A stretch of 63,307 bases of DNA from an uncultured Candidatus Saccharibacteria bacterium (GTDB lineage Bacteria > Patescibacteriota > Minisyncoccia > Phycocordibacterales > DATDWN01): positions 25,142 through 88,448 of the forward strand of contig CAYRRP010000004.1 of NCBI GenBank assembly GCA_964426735.1. Direction: 5' to 3'. A program made the position numbers and the translations under genes. Positions 3,922 through 62,535 of this stretch are shown piece by piece. Numbering within the stretch: the first letter of the stretch is position 1; each line of letters begins with the position of its first letter. The notes below the pieces were generated by a model. That model saw only the letters and a program-made list of their open reading frames with translations, was not told the origin of the DNA and made no database searches.

Positions 3922-4602
3922 ATGGAAGGGGATTCAAAAAGAGGACCAAAACCAAAAAAAATTATAGATGAAACCTGGCGACCTGATTTGGCTTACGCTA
4001 TCGGACTACTTGCATCTGATGGGTGTTTGTCGAGTGATGGTTTGCTGATTGATTTAACCTCAAACGAAAGAGAGCAATTAGAAAATTATTCCAAATGTCT
4101 CGGTGTTAATTTTACAATAGGGGAGAAAAAAGCTAACCATGGTATTAAGTATTTAAGGGTTCAATTTAAAAATCGTATTTTCTATAACTTTCTATTATCA
4201 ATCGGACTGACAAGAAAAAAATCTTTAACTCTCAATAAACTTGCTATACCAGATAAATACTTTTTTGATTTTTTAAGAGGACTTTTTGATGGGGATGGTT
4301 GTAGTTATAGTTACTGGGATCCTCGATGGAAATCAAGTTTTATGTTTTATGTTGGTTTTACATCTGGAAGTAAAGATTTTATTTACTGGATTCGACAAGA
4401 AATAAAAAACAAGATAGGAATAAATGGGCATATTACAAAGTCAAAAAGAAAAAATCCTTGTTATCAAATTAAATATGCAAAAAATGAAGCTATTAAATTG
4501 ATCCAACAAATGTATAAAAACAATAAATGTGTTTGCTTGAGTAGGAAAAGGTTGAAAATTAATGAATCTTTAGGTACTATAGGCGTACCTCTAATTGGTT
4601 AA
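3922..4602 (+). CDS. Free-standing double-motif LAGLIDADG homing endonuclease
   Basis: Two LAGLIDADG motifs are present: LAYAIGLLASDGCL and FLRGLFDGDGC. Confidence 0.85.
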   Translation: MEGDSKRGPKPKKIIDETWRPDLAYAIGLLASDGCLSSDGLLIDLTSNEREQLENYSKCLGVNFTIGEKKANHGIKYLRVQFKNRIFYNFLLSIGLTRKKSLTLNKLAIPDKYFFDFLRGLFDGDGCSYSYWDPRWKSSFMFYVGFTSGSKDFIYWIRQEIKNKIGINGHITKSKRKNPCYQIKYAKNEAIKLIQQMYKNNKCVCLSRKRLKINESLGTIGVPLIG

Positions 4603-4621: not shown

Positions 4622-4706
4622 GCCCAGGTGTCGTAATTGGTAGCCGAGCACCCTTGAGGTGGGTGTGCCGTAAGGTGTGGAGGTTCGAGTCCTCTCCTGG
4701 GCACCA
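4622..4706 (+). tRNA. tRNA-Leu (anticodon GAG), CCA encoded
   Basis: Acceptor GCCCAGG/CCTGGGC, anticodon loop TTGAGGT, long variable arm, T arm GGAGGTTCGAGTCCTCT, 3' ACCA. Confidence 0.9.
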
Positions 4707-8039: not shown

Positions 8040-8528
8040 ATGTATACACGAGAACAATTTTGGAAATCAGCTTCAAATGAAGTAAGAATTATTAAACACT
8101 TGGCAACTAAAATTCCAGAAGGGAAAGGAGACTATCGTCCTTCAGCAGCACAACGAAGTACACTTGAGTTGTTGCAGTATTTAAGTGCAACAGGTATGAC
8201 TACGTTTAAAGTAATGTTGACCGAAAATAAAAATTCATACGAAGACTATGTTGCCTTTAAGGAAAGTGTGACGATTGAAAATTTTAGAGATAAGATGGAT
8301 GAGCAAGAACGAGAGATGAAAGAAATGTTCGAAAAAATCACAGATGAAGATTTGAAGAAAGAATTTGATTATTACGGAAATCGAACAAAAGCAGAACATT
8401 TGATTGAGGGAATTTTGAAGACTTTTGCGGCATACCGAATGCAACTCTTCTTGTATGTAAAAGCATGCGGAGCGCATGTTTCGACTATGGATGTGTGGGC
8501 AGGAGTAGATACTCCATCAGCAAAGTAG
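8040..8528 (+). CDS. DinB-superfamily-like helical protein (hypothetical)
   Basis: Helical protein of about 160 aa with an N-terminal region resembling the DinB/YfiT fold family. The ATG at 8040 is preferred over the TTG at 7995. Confidence 0.45.
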   Translation: MYTREQFWKSASNEVRIIKHLATKIPEGKGDYRPSAAQRSTLELLQYLSATGMTTFKVMLTENKNSYEDYVAFKESVTIENFRDKMDEQEREMKEMFEKITDEDLKKEFDYYGNRTKAEHLIEGILKTFAAYRMQLFLYVKACGAHVSTMDVWAGVDTPSAK

Positions 8529-8640
8529 TACAATCACCTCATTTACGTCGTTGCGGTGCAAATTTTTTCACTCACCGTACGAAAAGTACGGCTTACTCAC
8601 ACATTCTCTTACGTCTAGTATCTGAAGCAATTTTACTACT
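8529..8640 (+). repeat. Dispersed ~115-nt hairpin repeat, copy A
   Basis: Core CTCACCGTACGAAAAGTACGGCT, with flanks CGTTGTTGCGGTGCAAATT and ATCTGAAGC shared with copies C and E. It starts at the stop codon of the upstream gene. Confidence 0.8.
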
Positions 8641-17508: not shown

Positions 17509-18054
17509 ATGTCGAAACAACAAATTGGTGAAGGTCGTAATTGGTATGTTATCCATACATACGCTGGATATGAAAACGCAGTGATGCGAAATCTTAAACA
17601 GCGTATTGAGTCTCTTGGTATGGAAGATAAAATCTTTGATGTAATTGTTCCAACTGAAAAGAAAATCAAAATCAAAGGAGGGAAGCGAGTAGAGGAAGAA
17701 GAGAAAATATATCCAGGATACGTATTGGTAGATATGATTGTAACCGATGATTCGTGGTATGTGGTACGAAATACTCCTCGTGTGACTGGTTTCGTTGGTT
17801 CAGGAGTGTTTCCGGTGCCTGTTGAAAAGAAGGAGGTTGAAGCGTTGTTTGCTCGTATGAATGCACACACCGCAAAACATAAAATTGATTTATCTGTTGG
17901 AGATATCGTCATGGTTGTAGATGGTCCATTTAAAGACCTCGAAGGTAAAGTGTCTGAGGTTGATGAAGAGAGAGGTAAGGTAAAAGTACTTGTGGCGATG
18001 TTTGGACGCGAAACACCAGTAGAGTTGGACTTTTTGCAAGTTAGAAAAAGTTAA
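17509..18054 (+). CDS. nusG: Transcription termination/antitermination factor NusG
   Basis: NGN domain (WYVIHTYAGYENAV, YPGYVLV) and KOW motif (VGDIVMVVDGPFKDLEGKV). Confidence 0.92.
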   Translation: MSKQQIGEGRNWYVIHTYAGYENAVMRNLKQRIESLGMEDKIFDVIVPTEKKIKIKGGKRVEEEEKIYPGYVLVDMIVTDDSWYVVRNTPRVTGFVGSGVFPVPVEKKEVEALFARMNAHTAKHKIDLSVGDIVMVVDGPFKDLEGKVSEVDEERGKVKVLVAMFGRETPVELDFLQVRKS

Positions 18055-18055
18055 A

Positions 18056-18174
18056 CTTCAAAATCTGGCGAACTCCTTTGTCGGAATTCCAATTGATGAC
18101 CGCTCACCTTACAAAAAGTAAGGCTCAGGATCATCAGTCGGCTTCCTTCGCGGATTTCATCCAGATTGTGAAAG
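18056..18174 (+). repeat. Dispersed ~115-nt hairpin repeat, copy B
   Basis: CTTCAAAATCTGG-CGAACTCCTTTGTCGGAA...CTCACCTTACAAAAAGTAAGGCT...TTCCTTCGCGGATTTCATCCAGATTGTGAAAG. It starts 2 nt after the nusG stop. Confidence 0.85.
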
Positions 18175-18197
18175 TTTTCAGTAGCTATTTAATACGG

Positions 18198-18226
18198 TTG
18201 AAATTAGTTAAAAATTGAGGTATAGT
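18198..18226 (+). promoter_or_regulatory. Sigma70-like promoter upstream of rplK
   Basis: TTGAAA (18198-18203), 17 nt, TATAGT (18221-18226). Confidence 0.5.
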
Positions 18227-18261
18227 GGCACTTCCCACGCTTCTAGGGAAAAAATAATACA

Positions 18262-24641: not shown

Positions 24642-24652
24642 ATACATTTGAA

Positions 24653-24692
24653 TACATAGGGGTACCCTATGTACATAGGGTACCCCTATGTA
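24653..24692. repeat. REP palindrome pair (back-to-back, opposite orientations)
   Basis: TACATAGGGGTACCCTATGTA (24653-24673) and TACATAGGGTACCCCTATGTA (24672-24692). The same motif flanks the RAYT gene at 49.6-50.5 kb. Confidence 0.85.
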
Positions 24693-24740
24693 TTTGCTTT
24701 CTTTATAAAAACTACTGAAAATGATAGTATTGGCGTATAT

Positions 24741-27700
24741 ATGGCAGAAGATAAAGATGTAAAGCTAAAAAGTGAGACCGCACAACGAGAAGAGAGTATT
24801 CTCGATTTTTGGCAAAAAGAAAAAATATTTGAAAAGACCCTCGCAAAGGAATCTCCAAAAGGGGAGTTTGTGTTCTATGAGGGTCCACCGACTGCAAATG
24901 CAAAGCCCGCACTGCATCATCTCGAAGCACGCGCATTTAAAGATGTAATACCGCGTTTTAAAACAATGCATGGTTTTCATGTGCGACGTAAAGGAGGATG
25001 GGATACTCATGGTCTTCCGGTGGAACTTCAGATAGAAAAAAAGCTCGGACTTCAATCTAAAAAAGATATTGAAAGCTATGGTATCGAAGCATTTAATAAA
25101 GAGTGTAAGGATAGTGTATTTGAATATATCGGAGAGTGGGAAAAATTTACTGATCGTATTGGATACTGGGTAGACAAAAAGAATGCGTATTTTACGTTCA
25201 ATCCAAGTTACATGGAGTCGGTGTGGAATATTGTCAAAACAGTTGATGAGAAAAAACTTTTGTACAAAGACTACAAGGTGGTGCCGTGGTGTCCTCGTTG
25301 TGGTACTGGTCTTTCGTCACACGAGCTCGCGCAAGGGTATGAAGATGTGAAGGATCTTTCGGTGTATGTGAAATTTCATTTAAAATCGGGACAGACATTT
25401 GGAGGAGATAGAATTACTAAAGATTCTGCTTATATTGTTGCTTGGACTACAACCCCGTGGACATTACCAGGGAATGTTGGTTTGGCTGTAGGGAAAGATA
25501 TTAAATATACAGCATTGAGAGTGGGTGGTATCTCAGAACTATTGATAGTTGCTAGTGAGAGAATTTTAGATTTGTTTAAAGACCAAAAGATTGAAATAGT
25601 TCATGAGGGTATTTTTGGTTCAGATCTTATTGGTCTTTCATACGAACCGCTATTCCCATATCTTGCGGACAAATTTACTGATAAAAATCCAGAAGCGTTT
25701 CAAAAAGCATACAAAGTATATGCAGGGGATTTTGTAACTACAGAAGATGGTACGGGTATTGTGCACACTGCAGTGATGTACGGACAAGAAGATTTTGATT
25801 TAGGTACAGAGGTTGGTTTGCCAAAATTCCATCTTGTAAATCCAGACGGACATTTTCTCGACGGTATGGATTTTCTTTCAGGGCGCTTTGTAAAAGAAAA
25901 AAGTCCTGAAGGAAAGCCAACCTTGGATGTGGATATCATCAACTATCTCAAGGAACACAATCTATTTTTTGCTCAAGAAAATTACAAACACTCATATCCA
26001 CATTGTTGGCGATGTAAAACTCCACTTATATATTATGCGCGAGATTCGTGGTACATCCGTATGTCGTCTCTCCGAAAAGAACTGATGGCAGAAAATGAAG
26101 GTGTTCGTTGGGAGCCAAAACATATCAAAGAGGGTCGCTTCGGTGAGTGGCTTCGTGAGATCAAAGATTGGGCTATTTCTCGTGAGCGATACTGGGGGAC
26201 TCCGCTTCCTGTATGGACTGATCCAGAAGGGAATTATCGAGTGGTAGGGAGTGTCAATGAACTCAGAAATCTCACTCAGAAATCTGGTAATACATACACT
26301 GTCATGCGTCATGGGCAGGCGGAAAATAATACTCGTGGTATTGCAAGTACAAAAAAAGACAATCCACACCATTTGACTGACCTCGGAAAAGAACAAGTGA
26401 GAGTCTCTATAGAAGATGTTCGCGGTAGAAATATAACAAAGATTATCGCTTCACCATTTGTTCGAACACGAGAGACTGCGGAAATGGTGGCAGAAGCACT
26501 TGGTATTGCAAAAGATGTAATCATATATGATGAACGACTTGGTGAACACAATGTTGGAATATTTGATGGACAATCGATAGAAGCCTATCGTCAGTTTTGT
26601 GTAGATAATGATTATTATACCGGCAGGCCAGAAGGTGGAGAGACGGTAGGTGAAATGAAAAACCGTGTCGGAGATTTTCTCTATGAAATCGAACAGAAAT
26701 ATCAAAATGAAAATATTTTAATTGTTACTCATGAAGATCCGGCATGGATGCTTTTTGCGGTTGCTGCAGGATGTAATCAAGAAGAGACACTCAAACTCGA
26801 TCCTTCAGGATGTGAATTTATAAAAAACGCTGAGGTGCGAGTACTTAATTTTATCCCACTGCCTCATAACAGAAACTTTGAGCTTGATTTGCATCGACCG
26901 CACATCGATAATGCAATGCTTTGTAATGAAAAAGGTCAGCCACTTACTCGTGTGAAAGAAGTGATGGATGTGTGGTTTGACTCAGGTGCTATGCCGTTTG
27001 CTCAGGTCAACTATCCATTTTTAGAAGAGGGGTTGTTATATCCTGCGGATTTTATTTCTGAAGCAATTGACCAGACTCGCGGATGGTTTTATACCCTCCA
27101 TGCGATTGGAGTACTAATGGGTAAAGGTAAAGCATATAAAAATGTGATCTGCCTTGGACATATTCTCGATGCTGAGGGGAAGAAGATGTCTAAATCGATT
27201 GGAAATATTGTTAATCCAAATGAGATGATGGATCTCTATGGTGTCGATGCACTTCGTTTGTGGATGTACAGTGTAAACCAACCAGGGGATTCGAAAAACT
27301 TTGATCCATCAACAGTAGATGAGATTGTTAAAAAAGTTTTCAATCCAACTCGAAATATTCTTGCTTTTTATGAGCTTTATGCTGATGAAGATACAAAAGC
27401 ATTTACAGGAAAATCAAATCATGTTCTTGACCAGTGGATAATGAGTCGTCTCAACGAAGTAATCAGAGAGGGTACTCAATCACTCGAAAACTATCAGGTA
27501 TTTGAGTCTGCCCGCTTAATTCGTGATTTTGTCAATGATTTCTCGACGTGGTATGTACGACGCTCACGAGACAGATTTAAATCCGAAAACAAAAAAGAAA
27601 AAAATGAAGCGCTTGCAACAACTCGCTTTGTACTACAAGAACTCGTAAAATACATGGCTCCGTTTACTCCATTTTTTGCTGAAGATGTATATCGTACGCT

Positions 27701-28277
27701 TCGTCTCGATATTGATCCTGAAAGTGTTCATCTTTCCATGTGGCCACAAGGAGGTGAAGTTAATGAAAAACTTATAGCTGATATGCAAAATGTTCGAGAG
27801 ACGGTGACTCGAGTGCTTGAACTTCGTTCAAAAGCAAATATAAAAGTAAGACAACCACTTGTGTCTTTGGTGGTGAAAGAAGAGTTTGGAGAAGAGCTTC
27901 GTGCAATTATTGCTGATGAGGTGAATGTAAAAGAAGTTGCCTCGGATGCAACTATGGCAGGAGAACTCGAGCTTGATACAACACTGACTCCGGACTTGAT
28001 TGAGGAAGGAATTGCGCGAGATGTAATTCGTGCTATTCAAGATGCTCGTAAAAAAGAAAATCTAACACCGAGTCAGACCGTTACACTTTCTATATCAGGA
28101 ATCGGAACAGAATTTTTGAATCGATGGGGTGAGATGATACAAAAACCTACAGGAGTGAAAAGTATTGAGGTTGTAGATGCACAAGGGGTTCATAAGCTCA
28201 CTCTCGATAACCTCTCGATTTCATTTTCTTTAGAACTTCAAAATCTGAGTGAAGTTCTAGGCGGACAAGAAAAATAA
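24741..28277 (+). CDS. ileS: Isoleucine--tRNA ligase carrying an inserted histidine-phosphatase domain
   Basis: PPTANAKPALHHL (HIGH region), the editing domain WTTTPWTLPGN, ISRERYWGTPLPVW, and KMSKS (KKMSKSIGN). The ATG at 24741 is preferred, since the upstream 24 codons are REP sequence. Confidence 0.9.
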   Translation: MAEDKDVKLKSETAQREESILDFWQKEKIFEKTLAKESPKGEFVFYEGPPTANAKPALHHLEARAFKDVIPRFKTMHGFHVRRKGGWDTHGLPVELQIEKKLGLQSKKDIESYGIEAFNKECKDSVFEYIGEWEKFTDRIGYWVDKKNAYFTFNPSYMESVWNIVKTVDEKKLLYKDYKVVPWCPRCGTGLSSHELAQGYEDVKDLSVYVKFHLKSGQTFGGDRITKDSAYIVAWTTTPWTLPGNVGLAVGKDIKYTALRVGGISELLIVASERILDLFKDQKIEIVHEGIFGSDLIGLSYEPLFPYLADKFTDKNPEAFQKAYKVYAGDFVTTEDGTGIVHTAVMYGQEDFDLGTEVGLPKFHLVNPDGHFLDGMDFLSGRFVKEKSPEGKPTLDVDIINYLKEHNLFFAQENYKHSYPHCWRCKTPLIYYARDSWYIRMSSLRKELMAENEGVRWEPKHIKEGRFGEWLREIKDWAISRERYWGTPLPVWTDPEGNYRVVGSVNELRNLTQKSGNTYTVMRHGQAENNTRGIASTKKDNPHHLTDLGKEQVRVSIEDVRGRNITKIIASPFVRTRETAEMVAEALGIAKDVIIYDERLGEHNVGIFDGQSIEAYRQFCVDNDYYTGRPEGGETVGEMKNRVGDFLYEIEQKYQNENILIVTHEDPAWMLFAVAAGCNQEETLKLDPSGCEFIKNAEVRVLNFIPLPHNRNFELDLHRPHIDNAMLCNEKGQPLTRVKEVMDVWFDSGAMPFAQVNYPFLEEGLLYPADFISEAIDQTRGWFYTLHAIGVLMGKGKAYKNVICLGHILDAEGKKMSKSIGNIVNPNEMMDLYGVDALRLWMYSVNQPGDSKNFDPSTVDEIVKKVFNPTRNILAFYELYADEDTKAFTGKSNHVLDQWIMSRLNEVIREGTQSLENYQVFESARLIRDFVNDFSTWYVRRSRDRFKSENKKEKNEALATTRFVLQELVKYMAPFTPFFAEDVYRTLRLDIDPESVHLSMWPQGGEVNEKLIADMQNVRETVTRVLELRSKANIKVRQPLVSLVVKEEFGEELRAIIADEVNVKEVASDATMAGELELDTTLTPDLIEEGIARDVIRAIQDARKKENLTPSQTVTLSISGIGTEFLNRWGEMIQKPTGVKSIEVVDAQGVHKLTLDNLSISFSLELQNLSEVLGGQEK
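26280..26870 (+). other. Histidine phosphatase (phosphoglycerate-mutase-like) domain inserted in IleS
   Basis: TVMRHGQAENN (RHG motif), LTDLGKEQ, ASPFVRTRETA, ERLGEHNVGIFDG, LIVTHEDP. It lies between ..VGSVNELRNL and ..LDLHRPHID of the IleS body. Confidence 0.75.
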
Positions 28278-28351
28278 TTGGAGCCGTACTAACGTACGGT
28301 GAGAATTATTTTTTGCAGTCCAACAACGAAATTTACCAGATTTTGAAGTTC
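28233..28351 (-). repeat. Dispersed ~115-nt hairpin repeat, copy C (inverted orientation), overlapping the ileS 3' end
   Basis: The outer stem GAACTTCAAAATCTG / CAGATTTTGAAGTTC is perfect over 15 bp. The core is GAGCCGTACTAACGTACGGTGAG. The last 15 ileS codons and its stop lie inside the element. Confidence 0.85.
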
Positions 28352-29005: not shown

Positions 29006-30889
29006 ATGACTGTAGAAGATGATCGAATCGAACAGCTTAAGCGAAAACTCTATTCACGTGATGGAGTTGTTCCTGCTATATCAACTGATTTTAAAATACA
29101 ACAAAATGCTGTCGATGAAGTAAAAGATGATTGGAGTACAGAGCTGCATATTGATGGTGCTCCATATGAACAATCAACTCATCCGTTTCTAAAAAAATTC
29201 TTTGCAGCATCTCTCGTCTTTTTTCTTGTTGCGCTTGCAGTAGCGGGGTATATGTTTTTTATGGGTACAAATGAAGTGTCTTCTGCAAATGTAGATATTG
29301 TAATCGTTGGGCCAGCAAGTGTTGCGTCAGGTGAACAGGTTGATCTAGGGTTGTCATTGCGTAATAAAAATCGTACAACACTCCATGATATTGTGCTTAC
29401 GATTGAGTATCCTGAGGGTGCTCGAGCTCAAGACAATAGTGCTGAGCCACTGAAACGTACGACAGAACAGATAGCATCTTTGGCAAAAGATTCAGAGCAT
29501 AATACAACAGCGAAGTTTTATGTATTTGGAGATAAAGATGTTCCTAAAACACTCACGATTAAGATGGAGTATTCTGTTACTGGTTCATCTGCGCGATTTA
29601 CGAAAGAAAAAAAATACGATGTTCTTATCGGCTCATCTCCATTGTTGATCAGTGTGTCTGCTCCTCAAGAGATTAATTCAGGTCAACAAGTTTCAATGCA
29701 AGTGACTGTGACATCAAATTCAACATCTCTCTTGAAAGATGTGTTGGTGAAGGCAGAATATCCATATGGGTTTACATACAATCGGGCAACACTCGAACCT
29801 GAAAGTGATAAACAGACATGGAAGATTGGTGATTTAAAAAATGGTGATAAAAAAGTATTTACGGTTATAGGTAGTGTACTCGCTCAAGATAATGAAGAGC
29901 GGACATTTAGATTTCTGGCAGGTGTGGCAAATCTTGATGGTGACGTAGAGACAGTGCTTGGCACAGCGATGCCGACAATTTCTGTACGCAAACCTTTTTT
30001 CAATACTATATTTTCTTTAGATGGTGATGTGTCTGATGTGGTAGGTGCAAAAGCAAACACACGTGTATCAGCTCAACTGTCAGTTGCAAACTCGCTCCCG
30101 GATTCTCTTTCAAATGTTGTATTAGAGGTTAAGATGAGTGGGGCTGCGTTAAATAAATCTGGTGTACGAGTGAATAGTGGAGGTTTTTATCAATCAAGCC
30201 AAAACGTGATTGTATGGGATAAAAATACAGATTCATCTTTTGATTTTATGCGACCAGGAGACAAGGTTTCAGCTCGGTTTGATTTAGAGAGTTTTAATGT
30301 TCCTCAGACAATGAAAAACCCAGAGATTACATTTGATGTGACGCTGAAAGGTGTTCGGTCTTTGGCTGGTGGTGGTGTTGATAATGTAGTGTCTACGGTC
30401 ACAAAAAAACTAAAGTTTTTTACAGATATTACTCTCGCTGCACGTTCATTACGACTTGGTGCATTGCAAAATACTGGCCCTGTTCCTCCGCAGCGAGACA
30501 CTCCTTCAACATATACAATCGAGTGGGTGCTTTCAAATACACACAATGATGTTCAAAAATCACAAGTACAAACAGTGCTTCCGGTGTATGTTGAATGGAT
30601 GGGTGTTGTATCTCCAAGTACAGAAAGTGTGATCTATAATGCAGATACACGTATGGTTACATGGAATGCAGGTACAATCGGTGCAGGTGCGGGGTATCTC
30701 ACGTCTCCTAAAAAAGTACTGTTTCAGGTAAAAATAAATCCAAGTGTATCGCAGGTTGGTTTGAGTCCGGCATTGACCGGCGATCTTCGCGTATCAGGAA
30801 TGGATACTTTTGTAGGTAAGGCGGTGGTGAATGATCTTATTCCGGTTACTACTAATACTGCGGATGGGTTTTCCGGTATAGTACAGTAA
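29006..30889 (+). CDS. Large membrane-anchored beta-rich protein, unknown function
   Basis: Single TM helix (FFAASLVFFLVALAVAGYMFF), followed by about 540 aa of repetitive beta-sandwich-like sequence. Confidence 0.6.
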   Translation: MTVEDDRIEQLKRKLYSRDGVVPAISTDFKIQQNAVDEVKDDWSTELHIDGAPYEQSTHPFLKKFFAASLVFFLVALAVAGYMFFMGTNEVSSANVDIVIVGPASVASGEQVDLGLSLRNKNRTTLHDIVLTIEYPEGARAQDNSAEPLKRTTEQIASLAKDSEHNTTAKFYVFGDKDVPKTLTIKMEYSVTGSSARFTKEKKYDVLIGSSPLLISVSAPQEINSGQQVSMQVTVTSNSTSLLKDVLVKAEYPYGFTYNRATLEPESDKQTWKIGDLKNGDKKVFTVIGSVLAQDNEERTFRFLAGVANLDGDVETVLGTAMPTISVRKPFFNTIFSLDGDVSDVVGAKANTRVSAQLSVANSLPDSLSNVVLEVKMSGAALNKSGVRVNSGGFYQSSQNVIVWDKNTDSSFDFMRPGDKVSARFDLESFNVPQTMKNPEITFDVTLKGVRSLAGGGVDNVVSTVTKKLKFFTDITLAARSLRLGALQNTGPVPPQRDTPSTYTIEWVLSNTHNDVQKSQVQTVLPVYVEWMGVVSPSTESVIYNADTRMVTWNAGTIGAGAGYLTSPKKVLFQVKINPSVSQVGLSPALTGDLRVSGMDTFVGKAVVNDLIPVTTNTADGFSGIVQ

Positions 30890-30892
30890 AAG

Positions 30893-31008
30893 CCTTCAGA
30901 ATGGCAAACTCCTTTGTCGGAACCTTGATTGATGCCCACTCACCGTACGACAAGTACGGCTCGGGAGCATCAATCAGTTTCCTTCGCGGATTTCATCCAT
31001 CCTGAAAG
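30893..31008 (+). repeat. Dispersed ~115-nt hairpin repeat, copy D
   Basis: CCTTCAGAATGG-CAAACTCCTTTGTCGGAA...CTCACCGTACGACAAGTACGGCTC...TTCCTTCGCGGATTTCATCCATCCTGAAAG. It starts 4 nt after the upstream stop. Confidence 0.85.
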
Positions 31009-31063
31009 ACTTTATTAAAACTGAAGTTGATTGTGAAGCGTATTTAATATACTATTTGAAATT

Positions 31064-38506: not shown

Positions 38507-38704
38507 ATGAAGTGTTACTTTACTCAAAACAACATACAGCATATCGACTATAAAGACGTTGATTTGCTTAAGAAATTCCTCAACCCGCATGCGCGAATGA
38601 TTTCACGTAAGCGAACAGGTACCACTGCTAAAAACCAGCGAAATCTTGCAGAGGCGGTTAAGCGAGCACGCTTCATGGGTCTTCTTCCATACGTAGCAAG
38701 ATAA
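38507..38704 (+). CDS. rpsR: 30S ribosomal protein S18
   Basis: [47 protein letters not shown]. Confidence 0.93.
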
Positions 38705-38822
38705 ACTTGTAAAATTACTCCATCTGCGTTGTTGCGATTCAAATTTGTTCGCTCACCGTAGGACAAGTACGGCTCACTCACAAATTCTCTCGCGCCTAGC
38801 ATCTGAAGCACTTTTTCAAGTT
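38704..38822 (+). repeat. Dispersed ~115-nt hairpin repeat, copy E
   Basis: CGTTGTTGCGATTCAAATTTGTTCGCTCACCGTAGGACAAGTACGGCTCACTCACAAATTCTCT..CATCTGAAGC. The outer stem is AACTTGTAAAA / TTTTTCAAGTT. Confidence 0.85.
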
Positions 38823-39041
38823 AATAAATACAAAACAAAAACCCCTTACGGGGTTTTTGTTTTAAGTAATCACCAGTGGGAGTCTGAGGATTTTTGTTTG
38901 AGTTTGAGGTGAGGAATGAGTGACCTCATTCCGCAAGACCTTGAATATTTTGTAATCAAAATGTGAAAGGTATACAGCTCCTGTAAGGAGGAAGGATGAC
39001 TTCAAACATACAACAAAGAAATCAGACAAAAAGACCAGACG

Positions 39042-49596: not shown

Positions 49597-49650
49597 CAGA
49601 AACAAAAACCAGCAATACTTGCTGGTTTTTTTTGTTAAATAAATCTCGAA

Positions 49651-49726
49651 TACATAGGGGTACCCTATGTATTCCGCAGAAGTAGTTATCCAAAGCATAG
49701 TAGTATACATAGGGTACCCCTATGTA
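49651..49726. repeat. REP palindromes upstream of RAYT (two copies, opposite orientation)
   Basis: TACATAGGGGTACCCTATGTA (49651-49671) and TACATAGGGTACCCCTATGTA (49706-49726). Confidence 0.85.
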
Positions 49727-49749
49727 AATTTATTTGATAATCTATATAT

Positions 49750-50415
49750 ATGTCAACAAGAACACTAAATTTTTCAGTCGGGGAATTTTATCACATCTAT
49801 AATCGAGGAACAGATTCAAGAATTATATTTATAGATAATGCTGATAAAGATAGGTTTATTAAATTATTATATATTGCGAATGGTACCAAACCTTTTGTTT
49901 TTCGTGACTTTCCCATAGGGGTACCCTATGTAAATGTCGATAAAGGAGATCCTATTGTTGCTATAGGTAGCTACTGCCTGATGGATAATCATTTTCATTT
50001 GCTCTTGAAGGAGATAAGTGATGGTGGTATATCTGTATTTATGACAAAAGTACTCACAAGTTATTCGTCTTATTTTAATAAAAAATATAAGCGTACAGGC
50101 AGTTTGTTTGAAGGGACATTTAAAGCAAAACATTTGGATACTGATGAATATTTAAAATATATCTTTTCGTACATTCATCTCAATCCTGTAAAAATTATTG
50201 AACCAAATTGGAAAGAGAATGGTATAAAAGATCGTGATAAGGCTAAGAGGTATTTAAAGGAATATAAGTATTCAAGTTATCTCGAGTATCTTGGGGAGAA
50301 GCGAACAGAAAATGCAATTATTAATAAAGTTGAATTTCCAGAGTATTTTGCTGATTTTAAAGAGTTTGATCTATTTATCAATGAATGGCTTTTGTTTGGT
50401 GAATATAAAATTTAA
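49750..50415 (+). CDS. REP-associated tyrosine transposase (RAYT; IS200/Y1_Tnp-like)
   Basis: HUH motif in CLMDNHFHLLLKE and the catalytic-Tyr helix YIFSYIHLNPVK. The N-terminal FYHIYNRG is typical of the family. Confidence 0.8.
   Translation: MSTRTLNFSVGEFYHIYNRGTDSRIIFIDNADKDRFIKLLYIANGTKPFVFRDFPIGVPYVNVDKGDPIVAIGSYCLMDNHFHLLLKEISDGGISVFMTKVLTSYSSYFNKKYKRTGSLFEGTFKAKHLDTDEYLKYIFSYIHLNPVKIIEPNWKENGIKDRDKAKRYLKEYKYSSYLEYLGEKRTENAIINKVEFPEYFADFKEFDLFINEWLLFGEYKI
49914..49932. repeat. REP-like palindrome inside the RAYT coding sequence
   Basis: CATAGGGGTACCCTATGTA is in frame and encodes ..PIGVPYV.. Confidence 0.75.
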
Positions 50416-50418
50416 GTT

Positions 50419-50479
50419 TACATAGGGTACCCCTATGTAAACTTAGATAAATCTCGAATACATAGGGGTACCCTATGTA
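50419..50479. repeat. REP palindromes downstream of RAYT (two copies)
   Basis: TACATAGGGTACCCCTATGTA (50419-50439) and TACATAGGGGTACCCTATGTA (50459-50479). Confidence 0.85.
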
Positions 50480-56960: not shown

Positions 56961-57079
56961 CGCTTTCAGAATTTGAATGAAATCCGAGGCGGGCGAAGAA
57001 AATAATTGGAGGCGTACTTGACTGTACGATGAGAATTATTTTCTGAAGTCTAACGAAGGAGTTCGTCAAATTTGAAAGC
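56961..57079 (-). repeat. Dispersed ~115-nt hairpin repeat, copy F (inverted orientation) between rplJ and rplL
   Basis: The reverse complement reads CTTTCAAATTTGACGAACTCCTTCGT..AATTCTCATCGTACAGTCAAGTACGCCTCC..CGCCTCGGATTTCATTCAAATTCTGAAAG. Confidence 0.85.
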
Positions 57080-57109: not shown

Positions 57110-57505
57110 ATGGAAGAAACAAAAGTAGTAGAAACTCCTGCGAAGTTCAAATCTATCGTAGAAGCAATTGAAACAATGTCAGTTCTTGACCTTCATGAGT
57201 TGGTAAAACACCTTGAAGAAAAGTTTGGTGTATCAGCGGCAGCGGTAGCTATGGCTCCAGCAGCAGGTGGTGCAGCAGGTGCAGCAGAAGAGAAAACATC
57301 ATTTGATGTAGAACTTACTGATGGTGGTGCTACAAAGATTGCTGTTATCAAAGTTGTAAAAGAAGCTCTTGCACTTGGTTTGAAAGAAGCAAAAGACCTC
57401 GTGGATGGTGCTCCAGCAATGCTTAAAACTGGCATGAAGAAAGAAGATGCAGAAGCTTTGAAAAAAGCTGTTGAAGAAGCGGGAGGAAAGGTTACATTCA
57501 AATAA
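57110..57505 (+). CDS. rplL: 50S ribosomal protein L7/L12
   Basis: Ala/Gly hinge ([18 protein letters not shown]) and C-terminal domain [27 protein letters not shown]. Confidence 0.95.
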
Positions 57506-60182: not shown

Positions 60183-60394
60183 CCGATGCATCACAGTGTG
60201 TAAAATATTTTTGTTTTGAATGGTCCGAGTGAGGAATACCTGTTATGAAAAGGGAGAAGGCCATCCCTGTGTAATGACAAAGCTCCTGCAGAGCTGGTGT
60301 TCCTCGCTCGGTCCACGGAAGTTCTTTCTGTGGCCGATTTTAAAATCGGTTTACCATTCAGTACGAAAATATTTTATATAGCGTGATGCATCGG
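60183..60394 (+). other. 23S insertion 1: helix-9 intervening sequence (~188 nt inside a 12-bp stem)
   Basis: CCGATGCATCAC (60183-60194) pairs with GTGATGCATCGG (60383-60394), between the conserved GCCCAAA and GGTTGTAAGG. The interior has nested stems. Confidence 0.8.
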
Positions 60395-60698: not shown

Positions 60699-60827
60699 GG
60701 GGGCATCACATGGAATGTGATGCAGTTTTTAGTCATTAGTCATAAGTCAACAGTAGATGCAAATGCATTTTACTGATGACTGTTAACTGTGAACTATTGA
60801 CTGCATCGCGCTTCGCGTGATGCTTCC
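60699..60827 (+). other. 23S insertion 2: helix-25 intervening sequence carrying repeat element rIE copy 1
   Basis: Inserted between CAAGGAGTCGGAGC and GTCACGGCGTGCC. The segment 60704-60822 is about 85% identical to 62413-62532. Confidence 0.8.
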
Positions 60828-61467
60828 GTCACGGCGTGCCTATTGAAGAATGAGCCAACGAGTTGATGGATGCAGCAAGGCTAAGCCCTTTACCGGGCGG
60901 AGTCGTAGGGAAACCGAGTGTGAATAGCGCGTTAAGTTGTATGCATCAGACCCGAAGCCAGAGCGAGCTTACCATGAGCAGGGTGAACTTTGTCGAAAGA
61001 TGAAGGGAGGCCCGAACAGTTTAGCCGTGCAATACTATCTGATGACTTGTGGTAAGAAGTGAAAAGCTAATCGAGCCTGGTAATAGCTGGTTCTCTCCGA
61101 AATAGCTTTTGGGCTAGCGTTAGATGATCCCTTCCGGGGTAGAGCACTGGAAGGACTCGACAGGGAGAAATCTCGCGAGTCCTATCAAACTCCGAATACG
61201 GAAGATTACAGTCTAGCAGTTAGACGGCGGGGGCTAAGCTCCGTACGTCAAAAGGGAAACAGCCCTGATCTCTATTTAAGGTCCCTAAATCTATGTTAAG
61301 TACACGTAAGGTGGTGGATTTTCTCAGACACTGAGGAGGTTGGCTTAGAAGCAGCCATCCTTTAAAGAAAGCGTAACAGCTCACTCAGTAAGAGAATCTG
61401 CGCCGCAAATAATCGGGGTTAAACATGGTACCGAAACTGAGGGTTTGTAGACTTCATCAAGAAAAAA

Positions 61468-61579
61468 TTCCAAAATTGGCGAATTTCATCTTTTTGATTT
61501 TTAAAATACTCGTCACCGTACGTCAGTACGGCTTCTCGTATTTTAAAAATCAAAAAGCGAACTTCATCCAATTTTGAAA
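61468..61579 (+). repeat. Dispersed ~115-nt hairpin repeat, copy G, inside the 23S H45 insertion
   Basis: TTCCAAAATTGG-CGAATTTCAT..TCGTCACCGTACGTCAGTACGGCTTCTC..CGAACTTCATCCAATTTTGAAA. Confidence 0.8.
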
Positions 61580-61602
61580 TTTTATAAAATGTTTTTTAAT
61601 GC

Positions 61603-61677
61603 GCATCGGTCGTCTAATGGTTAGGACATCGGACTCTTAATCCGAAAATTGGGGTTCGAGTCCCTGCTGATGCGCCA
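61603..61677 (+). tRNA. tRNA-Lys (anticodon CTT), CCA encoded, nested in the 23S insertion
   Basis: Acceptor GCATCGG/CTGATGC (one G-U pair), U8, 3-bp D stem GTC/GAC, anticodon stem TCGGA/TCCGA with loop CTCTTAA, T arm TGGGG-TTCGAGT-CCCTG, discriminator G, CCA. Confidence 0.8.
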
Positions 61678-61722
61678 CTCCAATTTTTGGAGTGAATGTT
61701 CTTTAATTTGTGTCCAAAATGT

Positions 61723-61799
61723 GGACGTGTAGCTCAGCCTGGTAGAGCGGTGCGCTGAAAACGCATATGTCGGGGGTTCGATTCCCTCCACGTCCACCA
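61723..61799 (+). tRNA. tRNA-Phe (anticodon GAA), CCA encoded, nested in the 23S insertion
   Basis: Acceptor GGACGTG/CACGTCC, D arm TAGCTCAGCCTGGTAGAGC, anticodon loop CTGAAAA, T arm GGGGG-TTCGATT-CCCTC, ACCA. Confidence 0.88.
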
Positions 61800-62410
61800 C
61801 TCTCTTTCAGAGAGTGGTACACAAATTTTTTCTTTCGATTTTTTAAAATCGAATTCTTGATGAAGTCTACAAGCGGTAGGAGAGTATTCGTATCTGCGCT
61901 GAAGCCAAAGGGGTGACCCATGGTGGAGCGATGCGAAGTAAGAATGTTGGCACAAGTAACCACAATGCAGGTGAAATCCCTGCACGCCGAAAGACTAAGG
62001 TTTCCTGTTCAATGTTAATCAGAGCAGGGTTAGTCGGGCCTAAGGAAATGGAGAGATCCGCATCCGATGGACATAGGGTTAATATTCCCTAACTTTTGTG
62101 TAATGCGATGGAAGGACGGAGTGCTGTATATAGGGCTCATTATTGGATTTGAGTCACTGCCGTGAGATTGTGTTCCAGGTAAATCCGGACACTCACTTAA
62201 ATGTGGAATTCGAGCGGTTGCGAAACCTTGAGATTCGTCAAGAGGGATCCTATAAAGCGCGCTTCCAAGAAAAGTTTCTAAGCTTAAGTACACAAGAACC
62301 GTACCGTAAACCGACACAGGTAGTCAGGTCGAGTAGACCAAGGCGAACGAGTGAGAGATCCCCAAGGAACTCGGCAAAAAAGCAGCCGTAACTTCGGAAT
62401 AAGGCTTGCC

Positions 62411-62535
62411 CCCATCACATGGAATGTGATGGTGGTCATAAGTAGACAGTCATAAGTCAACAGAAAATGCATATGCATTTTACTAATGACTATTGACTGT
62501 GAACTGTTGACTTCATCGCGCTTCGCGTGATGGGG
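62411..62535 (+). other. 23S insertion 4: helix-63 intervening sequence carrying repeat element rIE copy 2
   Basis: Inserted between CGGAATAAGGCTTG and CGCAGCTAAAG..GGCAACTGTTTATCAAAAACACAG. The closing stem is CCCCCATCAC / GTGATGGGGG. Confidence 0.8.

Follow-up and report, generated by a model that had tools for sequence, protein, structure and literature searches.

The window, by which we mean the whole stretch of 63,307 nt analysed here, contains seven copies of a repeat of 115 to 125 nt that has no coding capacity of its own and lies in intergenic spacers. The positions and orientations listed for these copies in a preliminary description were borne out by an alignment of ~115 nt that joins all seven copies, by a repeat finder that recovered the same seven, and by the covariance model R1, which derives from 46 relatives and was run over each position of the window. 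This model gave exactly seven matches with 75.7 to 101.7 bits (E values from 1e-18 to 1e-25), and the runner-up reached 11.6 bits. As only the seven listed copies were returned, the list is complete and the window holds no eighth copy. The alignment also showed that the similarity extends past the 20-nt apical hairpin. In one respect the description had to be corrected: in each of the seven copies, the orientation that it termed "+" is the strand that folds less well. We therefore use the term sense strand for the better-folding strand, i.e., the reverse complement of that orientation, and the strands given below refer to it.

Gene context of the seven copies

Copy A (8525..8639, minus strand, 83.7 bits with R1) follows the TAG stop codon (8526-8528) of a 177-aa open reading frame (ORF) and ends 18 nt before an ABC-transporter gene. 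Its folding energy is -31.6 kcal/mol on the minus strand and -21.1 kcal/mol on the plus strand, and the upstream stop codon is paired within the foot of the hairpin. The 177-aa gene had been labeled "DinB-like," which is unsupported because the gene has no Pfam match. Copy B (18053..18177, minus strand, 87.1 bits) begins inside the nusG stop codon (TAA, 18052-18054) and precedes the promoter and leader of rplK. Behind a TATAGT box upstream of rplK, the window (18215-18255) and its relatives (L123-L134, L203-L212) share a conserved hairpin, TCCCRCGCTTCTMGGGA, that is likely the L11-operon leader. Copy D (30890..31012, minus strand, 84.9 bits) is located right after the TAA stop codon (30887-30889) of a gene for a 627-aa DUF11 protein and is followed by a gene for a class II aminoacyl-tRNA synthetase; it is flanked by TA..TA and folds with -59.4 kcal/mol on the better strand versus -43.7 kcal/mol on the weaker one. 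Copy E (38704..38822, minus strand, 97.2 bits) shares the last base of the rpsR stop codon (TAA, 38702-38704), and a canonical terminator is present downstream (38834-38868).

Copies C and F have the opposite orientation. Copy C (28233..28351, plus strand, 101.7 bits; -52.6 kcal/mol, z = -9.3), which places its strong strand in the mRNA, contains the stop codon of ileS (28275-28277), and a recO-like gene begins 5 nt later (both genes were assigned by Pfam). The ileS gene (24669-28277) encodes an isoleucyl-tRNA synthetase of 1202 aa, residues 545-712 of which form an inserted histidine-phosphatase domain (PF00300), and its final ~15 codons and the stop codon lie inside copy C. Copy F (56962..57079, plus strand, 94.7 bits; -45.2 versus -35.2 kcal/mol) is found between rplJ (stop codon 56948-56950) and rplL (start at 57110), and the identical 159-nt spacer occurs in three further loci (L120-L122). 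The preliminary statement that copies begin at stop codons thus held for nusG (copy B), rpsR (copy E), the 29006 gene (copy D), and the 177-aa gene (copy A); at rplJ, copy F starts ~10 nt past the stop codon.

Copy G (61464..61583, minus strand, 75.7 bits) lies within an insertion of ~390 nt in the 23S rRNA gene, alongside genes for tRNA-Lys and tRNA-Phe, and an rRNA alignment confirmed that one copy is located inside an rRNA insertion. This insertion (61446-61869) is closed by a perfect 17-bp stem (61446-61462 and 61853-61869, GTAGACTTCATCAAGAA / TTCTTGATGAAGTCTAC) and holds tRNA-Lys(CUU) at 61603-61677 and tRNA-Phe(GAA) at 61723-61799, with a small hairpin behind each gene. The nesting of tRNA genes in a 23S intervening sequence looks unusual. 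The 23S gene has further insertions, amounting to ~1.1 kb of extra sequence over model positions 1-2300. One of 196 nt (60193-60388) is at model position ~283, and another, near position ~583, contains an 85-nt repeat (60738-60822) that recurs with 91% identity 1.7 kb downstream (62448-62532).

Several other features of the window were recorded. A free-standing LAGLIDADG-type ORF (3922-4602) is situated directly upstream of tRNA-Leu (4622-4706), and at the window edge a perfect 55-nt direct repeat containing the hairpin AATCTCAATTCGACGGAATTGAGATT occurs twice, 129 nt apart (1-55 and 130-184). An IS200-like ORF with a Y1_Tnp domain (49750-50415, 29.3 bits) has the palindrome ATACATAGGGGTACCCTATGTAT on both sides (49650-49727 and 50421-50479), and two further copies of this palindrome, inverted with respect to each other, lie between argS and ileS (24651-24694). 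In this Patescibacteria genome, the ORF and its palindromes resemble a RAYT-type transposase accompanied by REP-like repeats of its own.

Hairpin structure and distribution of the family

Each of the seven copies forms a single long hairpin of ~55 bp, with z scores of -2.9 to -12.6 against shuffled sequences for the better strand. The apical hairpin described as common to all copies was present, but the exact motif CTCACCGTAC-N-GTACGGCT was found only in copies A, C, and D. The other four copies (B, E, F, and G) deviate from it, copy B through the compensatory change CCTTAC/GTAAGG. Scans for terminators and promoters at the copies remained at chance level. An intrinsic terminator, i.e., a short GC-rich stem with a T run, was rejected as an identity of the repeat, as no terminator-like call was obtained at copies C, D, and E. 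The genes downstream of copies A, C, and F start 5 to 30 nt after the repeat.

When the apical motif CTCACCGTAC-N3-7-GTACGGCT was scanned in one genome per GTDB species, at least 119 loci were obtained, which places the family far beyond the window. Among the matches listed, 106 of 119 loci formed a long hairpin of this kind. The family's hosts comprise, among others, numerous Patescibacteria (such as Saccharibacteria, Kaiserbacteria, Paceibacterota, and Uhrbacteria), the cultured Burkholderiales Variovorax, Polaromonas JS666, Xylophilus, Massilia, Janthinobacterium, and Herbaspirillum, and metagenome-assembled genomes of Myxococcota, Acidobacteriota, and Rokubacteria. The window comes from a member of the Paceibacteria that is related closely to Zambryskibacteria. 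A plasmid search with a Variovorax copy detected single copies on Ralstonia megaplasmids only, where matching copies were present in 15 records and carried no annotation. In the megaplasmid of Ralstonia solanacearum (L214, 2985-3110) the copy is located right after the TGA stop codon of a 519-aa gene and is followed by a co-directional ORF, and this cultivable organism offers a convenient system to probe the function. Searches of Rfam with the window, 16 loci, and one Variovorax copy revealed no family at the gathering or E-value thresholds, and only generic long-hairpin microRNA models touched copy G. Nothing relevant was found in literature searches with keywords and with sequence strings of the apex.

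Across the family the outer stems diverge strongly in sequence and nevertheless remain complementary, as had been noticed for the window copies. In the family alignment 90.8% of the cells were paired, compared to 70.1% in shuffles and 29 to 38% in slid controls. Changes on both sides of a pair were counted in 240 cells versus 78.5 in shuffles, and none of 500 shuffles reached 240. RNAalifold analysis of 46 low-GC copies yielded 25 pairs, of which 19 showed compensatory changes. The two arms are paired all the way from foot to apex, so that terminal inverted repeats are present (e.g., AACTTCAAAATCTGG/CCAGATTTTGAAGTT). [quoted passage not shown]

The two strands of the repeat are not equivalent. 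The better strand was the same one in 107 of 113 copies, with mean folding energies of -67.1 versus -54.7 kcal/mol, and across the 113 copies it contained 471 G.U pairs compared to 234 on the weaker strand. The apex of the better strand reads GAGCCGUAC-loop-GUACGGUGAG with GA/GA flanks. An invariant G.U pair closes the apical stem, and the 5'-GA-3' on either side of the stem resembles tandem sheared G.A pairs. Also conserved on this strand is a purine-rich internal loop, YRAGGCG / CGCAACGMAG, which we infer to be kink-turn-like. One Burkholderiales subtype contains GUACGGUGAGGACCG, which we take to resemble the sarcin-ricin loop of 23S rRNA; since the other subtypes lack this sequence, the idea of a relationship to that loop was dropped.

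Placement at stop codons and evidence for mobility

In 68 of the 106 copies among the matches listed, an ORF of at least 80 codons stops before the apex, at a modal distance of 49 to 52 nt and in one orientation only. This anchored orientation, which is the one used in the preliminary description, places the weaker-folding strand in the mRNA. The stop codons at the 68 anchored copies among the matches listed were TGA in 27, TAG in 23, and TAA in 18 cases, and the stop codon is mostly paired within the foot of the hairpin. In the reverse orientation the distances to ORF ends were merely scattered. The GC-rich Burkholderiales, which have long spacers, gave a similar picture: 31 gene ends were located within 60 nt in the anchored orientation, about two-thirds of them within 1 nt of the element edge, whereas the other orientation gave 10 gene ends, none of them nearer than 7 nt. 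In the window, copies A, B, D, and E obey this rule, copies C and F place the strong strand in the mRNA, and copy G is in the rRNA insertion.

This geometry, a palindrome of 60 to 140 nt that overlaps a stop codon and whose functional strand is antisense to the ORF, is shared by the attC sites of integrons, imperfect palindromes whose bottom strand is the one that folds and which begin at the stop codon of the preceding ORF. An attC-type origin of the copies is nevertheless extremely improbable. By inspection, the core sites RYYYAAC/GTTRRRY are absent from the aligned feet, the conserved part is the apex and not the base, there are no cassette arrays, and the neighbors are core genes (nusG, rplK, rplJ, rplL, rpsR, and ileS).

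Comparison of orthologous sites revealed presence/absence polymorphism next to identical L11 or S18 proteins. The nusG-rplK spacer is occupied in ~7 of 80 related species. Contigs whose L11 protein is identical to that of the window (L204-L212) showed four states at this site: the window allele, an allele with the same outer arms and a G-like inner module, one with a C/F-like inner module, and an empty site. The subtypes in L204-L210 differ from copy B, and in the empty alleles (L211, L212) the -35 box of rplK is located 8 nt after the nusG TAA. As the C terminus of NusG is the same in empty and filled alleles, the insertion occurred exactly after the native stop codon. In a further relative (L128, ~2260-2400), a different long hairpin, AAGTCAAAATCAC...GTGATTTTGATTT, is positioned just after the nusG stop codon, and it seems that this spot attracts more than one family of palindromic insertions.

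At the rpsR stop codon, contigs with an identical S18 protein included four empty alleles (L337, L338, L341, and L342) and three subtypes, two of which differ from that of the window (L339/L340 and L344), and every subtype was flanked by TA..TA. In these alleles an element of the form AAC...GTT is bounded by TA on both sides, and the downstream sequence continues with TAAT as in the empty allele. This arrangement indicates insertion into the TA of the TAA stop codon, with the stop codon being rebuilt from the first A of the element. TA..TA flanks were found in the three independent alleles of the rpsR site, in the GC-rich locus L046, and in several window copies, and at copies A, B, and G they are missing or have decayed; as TA is common in AT-rich DNA, they represent weak evidence by themselves. 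The subfamily of Variovorax and Zoogloea has 3-nt repeats, TGA..TGA or TCA..TCA, in place of TA, and its ends GAAGGTGTGAATAAAC / GAAGGTGTGAAGAAAC are similar to the inverted repeats of IS5, GGAAGGTGCGAATAAG / GGAAGGTGCGAACAAG, a resemblance that we regard as a lead only. These two properties suggest that possibly more than one mobilizing enzyme is involved.

No plausible mobilizing transposase was detected in the window, and none was recurrent near the listed copies of the at least 119 loci. Separate HMMs for the two arms, with which an autonomous parent was sought, matched just truncated or interrupted copies. Clustering of the ORFs around the at least 119 listed copies did not reveal a recurrent partner protein; by eye, the top neighbor clusters were ordinary genes (ABC ATPase, LysR, Pol IV), and the DinB/Pol IV neighbor, present in four loci among the matches listed, does not adjoin the element. 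A search for IS5 transposases in plasmids gave no gain, because enterobacterial IS5 swamped the matches.

The alleles described above bear directly on the question of whether the repeat might be an immobile, vertically inherited cis-acting RNA module encoded by the host, such as a 3'-UTR stabilizer, a processing site, or a terminator, with the likeness between copies arising through a shared host factor. The strong covariation, the highly conserved apex with its non-canonical GA/GA flanks, and the constant placement at stop codons would fit such a module, as would the single conserved copy between two co-directional genes on the megaplasmid of R. solanacearum and the position of copy G in an intervening sequence of rRNA, in which long stems serve as sites of processing. 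We nevertheless consider it unlikely. Empty alleles and three subtypes were found at the same nucleotide with identical flanking proteins, TA..TA flanks were seen, and copies C and F show that both orientations occur between co-transcribed genes. Furthermore, the flanking genes are unrelated, the terminator-like calls are missing at copies C, D, and E, and a normal terminator is already present behind copy E.

A second alternative, a single-stranded DNA element moved by an HUH/Y1 transposase (REPIN/RAYT-like or derived from IS200/IS605), would explain why folding of one strand is selected and would agree with the strand asymmetry in 107 of 113 copies and with the presence of the Y1_Tnp ORF at 49750-50415. 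However, the palindrome ATACATAGGGGTACCCTATGTAT flanking this ORF has nothing in common with the family. Y1 transposition is not known to leave a target duplication, whereas TA..TA flanks were seen here. The folding strand is mostly antisense to genes on the leading strand of the window (positive GC skew), which is the opposite of the strand bias of IS608, and the element is one long hairpin rather than a pair of subterminal hairpins. This alternative is therefore very unlikely in our judgment.

We conclude that the seven copies are probably non-autonomous, hairpin-forming miniature transposable elements of the type of the enterobacterial ERIC repeats. According to our proposal, a transposase supplied in trans would insert the elements at TA, the obvious candidate being an IS630/mariner-type DDE transposase that duplicates TA. 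When this TA belongs to a TAA or TAG stop codon, insertion would be harmless, as the stop codon would be rebuilt from the first A of the element, and this, combined with selection, could explain why the copies hug gene ends. Resident copies would be co-transcribed with the flanking genes, and their RNA hairpins might alter mRNA decay in an orientation-dependent manner, by analogy with the ERICs of Yersinia.

Relationship to ERIC and other known systems

ERIC is a MITE with terminal inverted repeats, a target-site duplication, and TA at its termini (Delihas, PMC2229807), and it occurs in Enterobacteriaceae and Vibrionaceae according to a 2024 review (PMC10969869). Its relationship to the family was analyzed with models built from either side. 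On 96 kb from 12 enterobacterial loci, 7 of the 10 matches of R1, a model based on Patescibacteria copies, were ERICs on the right strand (10.4 to 19.2 bits), six of which spanned the full model length, and the E. coli ERIC in the ybhI/ybhJ spacer (L216) was the best match of R1 in that locus. Conversely, R2, a covariance model built from 45 ERICs, ranked copy E (17.1 bits) first and copy G (14.9 bits) second in the window, both on the predicted strand, and thus recognized two of the seven copies. Smith-Waterman comparison of the family with ERIC gave z = 1.8 to 3.0 over shuffles, which is no better than the reversed control, and an ERIC HMM (nhmmer) found no family member. As these plain-sequence tests were not significant, the kinship with ERIC is supported by the structure-aware models and by shared behavior but is not proven by sequence.

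The shared features include several sequence boxes, namely AAGGCG, GAGC(C)KTAC-loop-GTAMG(G)TGA, CAACGCA..ATGC, and an outer ACTTCAA. The apex of the E. coli ERIC is GAGCTTAC-ATAA-GTAAGTGA, compared to GAGCCTTAC-TTTTT-GTAAGGTGAG in copy B, and CGCAAACGCAGCACATGC of the E. coli ERIC corresponds to CGCAACGCAGCAGATGC of the family. In a comparison set of 114 ERICs, the strand of the ERIC2 primer folded better in 108, and 20 of the 29 ends of long ORFs were located at -65 to -68, only with the weaker strand in the mRNA. A 2005 study by De Gregorio reportedly noted an orientation bias of ERIC copies at stop codons in Yersinia, too.

End to end and on its better strand, the E. coli ERIC matched the Rfam family V_AS5 (RF02818) with 46 bits, the gathering threshold being 96. 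AS5 is a 133-nt RNA of Vibrio cholerae confirmed by Northern blotting (PMC2665243), and V_AS5 corresponds to the better-folding strand of an ERIC-like hairpin in its Vibrio form. V_AS5 gave no match to the window copies up to an E value of 5 for the whole window or of 10 for copy E alone. By analogy with AS5, the better strand may also be a discrete antisense RNA. A stronger version of this idea holds that each copy is a small antisense RNA gene whose product is the well-folding strand and which spread while regulating or protecting the 3' end of the upstream mRNA. In most copies the better strand is indeed antisense to the abutting gene, the G.U and GA/GA features are conserved on this strand only, and the match of the E. 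coli ERIC to an RNA detected by Northern blotting (PMC2665243) points in the same direction. On the other hand, the flank columns of alignment A2 are unconserved and thus contain no conserved promoter upstream of the better strand, promoter-like matches were at chance level, and copies C and F carry the strong strand in mRNA sense, which makes the antisense RNA gene quite unlikely.

Taken together, these results support the conclusion that the family is a distant, previously unrecognized branch of ERIC-type MITEs with an unexpectedly wide host range and an unusually conserved apex. Of the initial suggestion of a MITE/REP/ERIC-like element, the ERIC-type MITE was retained in view of the terminal inverted repeats, the TA..TA flanks, the empty and filled alleles, the stop-codon bias, and the reciprocal models, and the REP part was abandoned. 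The further suggestion of a 3'-UTR RNA module would be compatible with the reported behavior of ERIC, whose effect on the upstream mRNA depends on orientation and is linked to RNase E (PMC2229807, PMC10969869); in Yersinia, the orientation of a co-transcribed ERIC decides on destabilization of the upstream mRNA via an RNase E site (PMC2229807). A broader hypothesis, which we regard as possible but rather doubtful, is that a superfamily of ancient origin and pan-bacterial distribution exists, of which ERIC is no more than the enterobacterial branch. The strand-specific core of this superfamily, composed of the GA-flanked apical hairpin and the kink-turn-like AAGGCG / CGC-AAC-GNA loop, would be the RNA or single-stranded DNA target of a conserved factor; it would have spread to at least five phyla on different ends (TA-type in Patescibacteria and enterics, T(G/C)A IS5-like in Variovorax) and would be kept at stop codons for its function.

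ERIC repeats have served as a typing tool for decades and were described as restricted to enterics and vibrios. If the relationship to ERIC is true, the same kind of element extends from ~1-Mb genomes of the candidate phyla radiation to soil Betaproteobacteria, with stop-codon placement, orientation rule, and strand bias alike everywhere. It would then be possible to test in cultivable Variovorax and Ralstonia strains which enzyme moves ERIC-type elements and why one strand is selected to fold. For Patescibacteria, the results mean that such reduced genomes can accommodate about one mobile hairpin in every 9 kb, within ribosomal core operons and even in an insertion of the 23S rRNA gene.

Among the other known repeats, REP/BIME and REPINs with their RAYTs are likewise extragenic palindromes near gene ends, but REP sequences of 20 to 35 nt with a GTAG/GTGG head (PMC2817692) differ from the single ~115-nt hairpin found here, which has TA flanks at several copies, and REP was rejected. 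The beta-proteobacterial repeat element (BRE) was rejected as well, because its published sequences are unrelated. Correia/NEMIS of Neisseria and RUP of pneumococcus resemble the family as hairpins of ~100 to 150 bp with TA duplication, and they are co-transcribed with their neighbors and exert effects at the RNA level (PMC2229807). Their sequences are unrelated to the family, however, their conserved part is the termini and not the apex, and in the literature searched no stop-codon anchoring was reported for them. The closest resemblance is to ERIC (also called IRU or RU-1), a MITE of ~127 bp. Both are imperfect palindromes of 115 to 130 nt that are intergenic within transcription units and between co-directional genes, TA is seen at the insertion site of ERIC and of several copies of the family, and both have one better-folding strand and a common orientation of the copies abutting stop codons. 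In contrast to ERIC, the family lacks the CCCCAG/CUGGGG helix and has GCCGUAC/GUACGGU as apical stem, and its hosts (Patescibacteria, Burkholderiales, Myxococcota, and Acidobacteriota) are outside the range given for ERIC in the 2024 review (PMC10969869).
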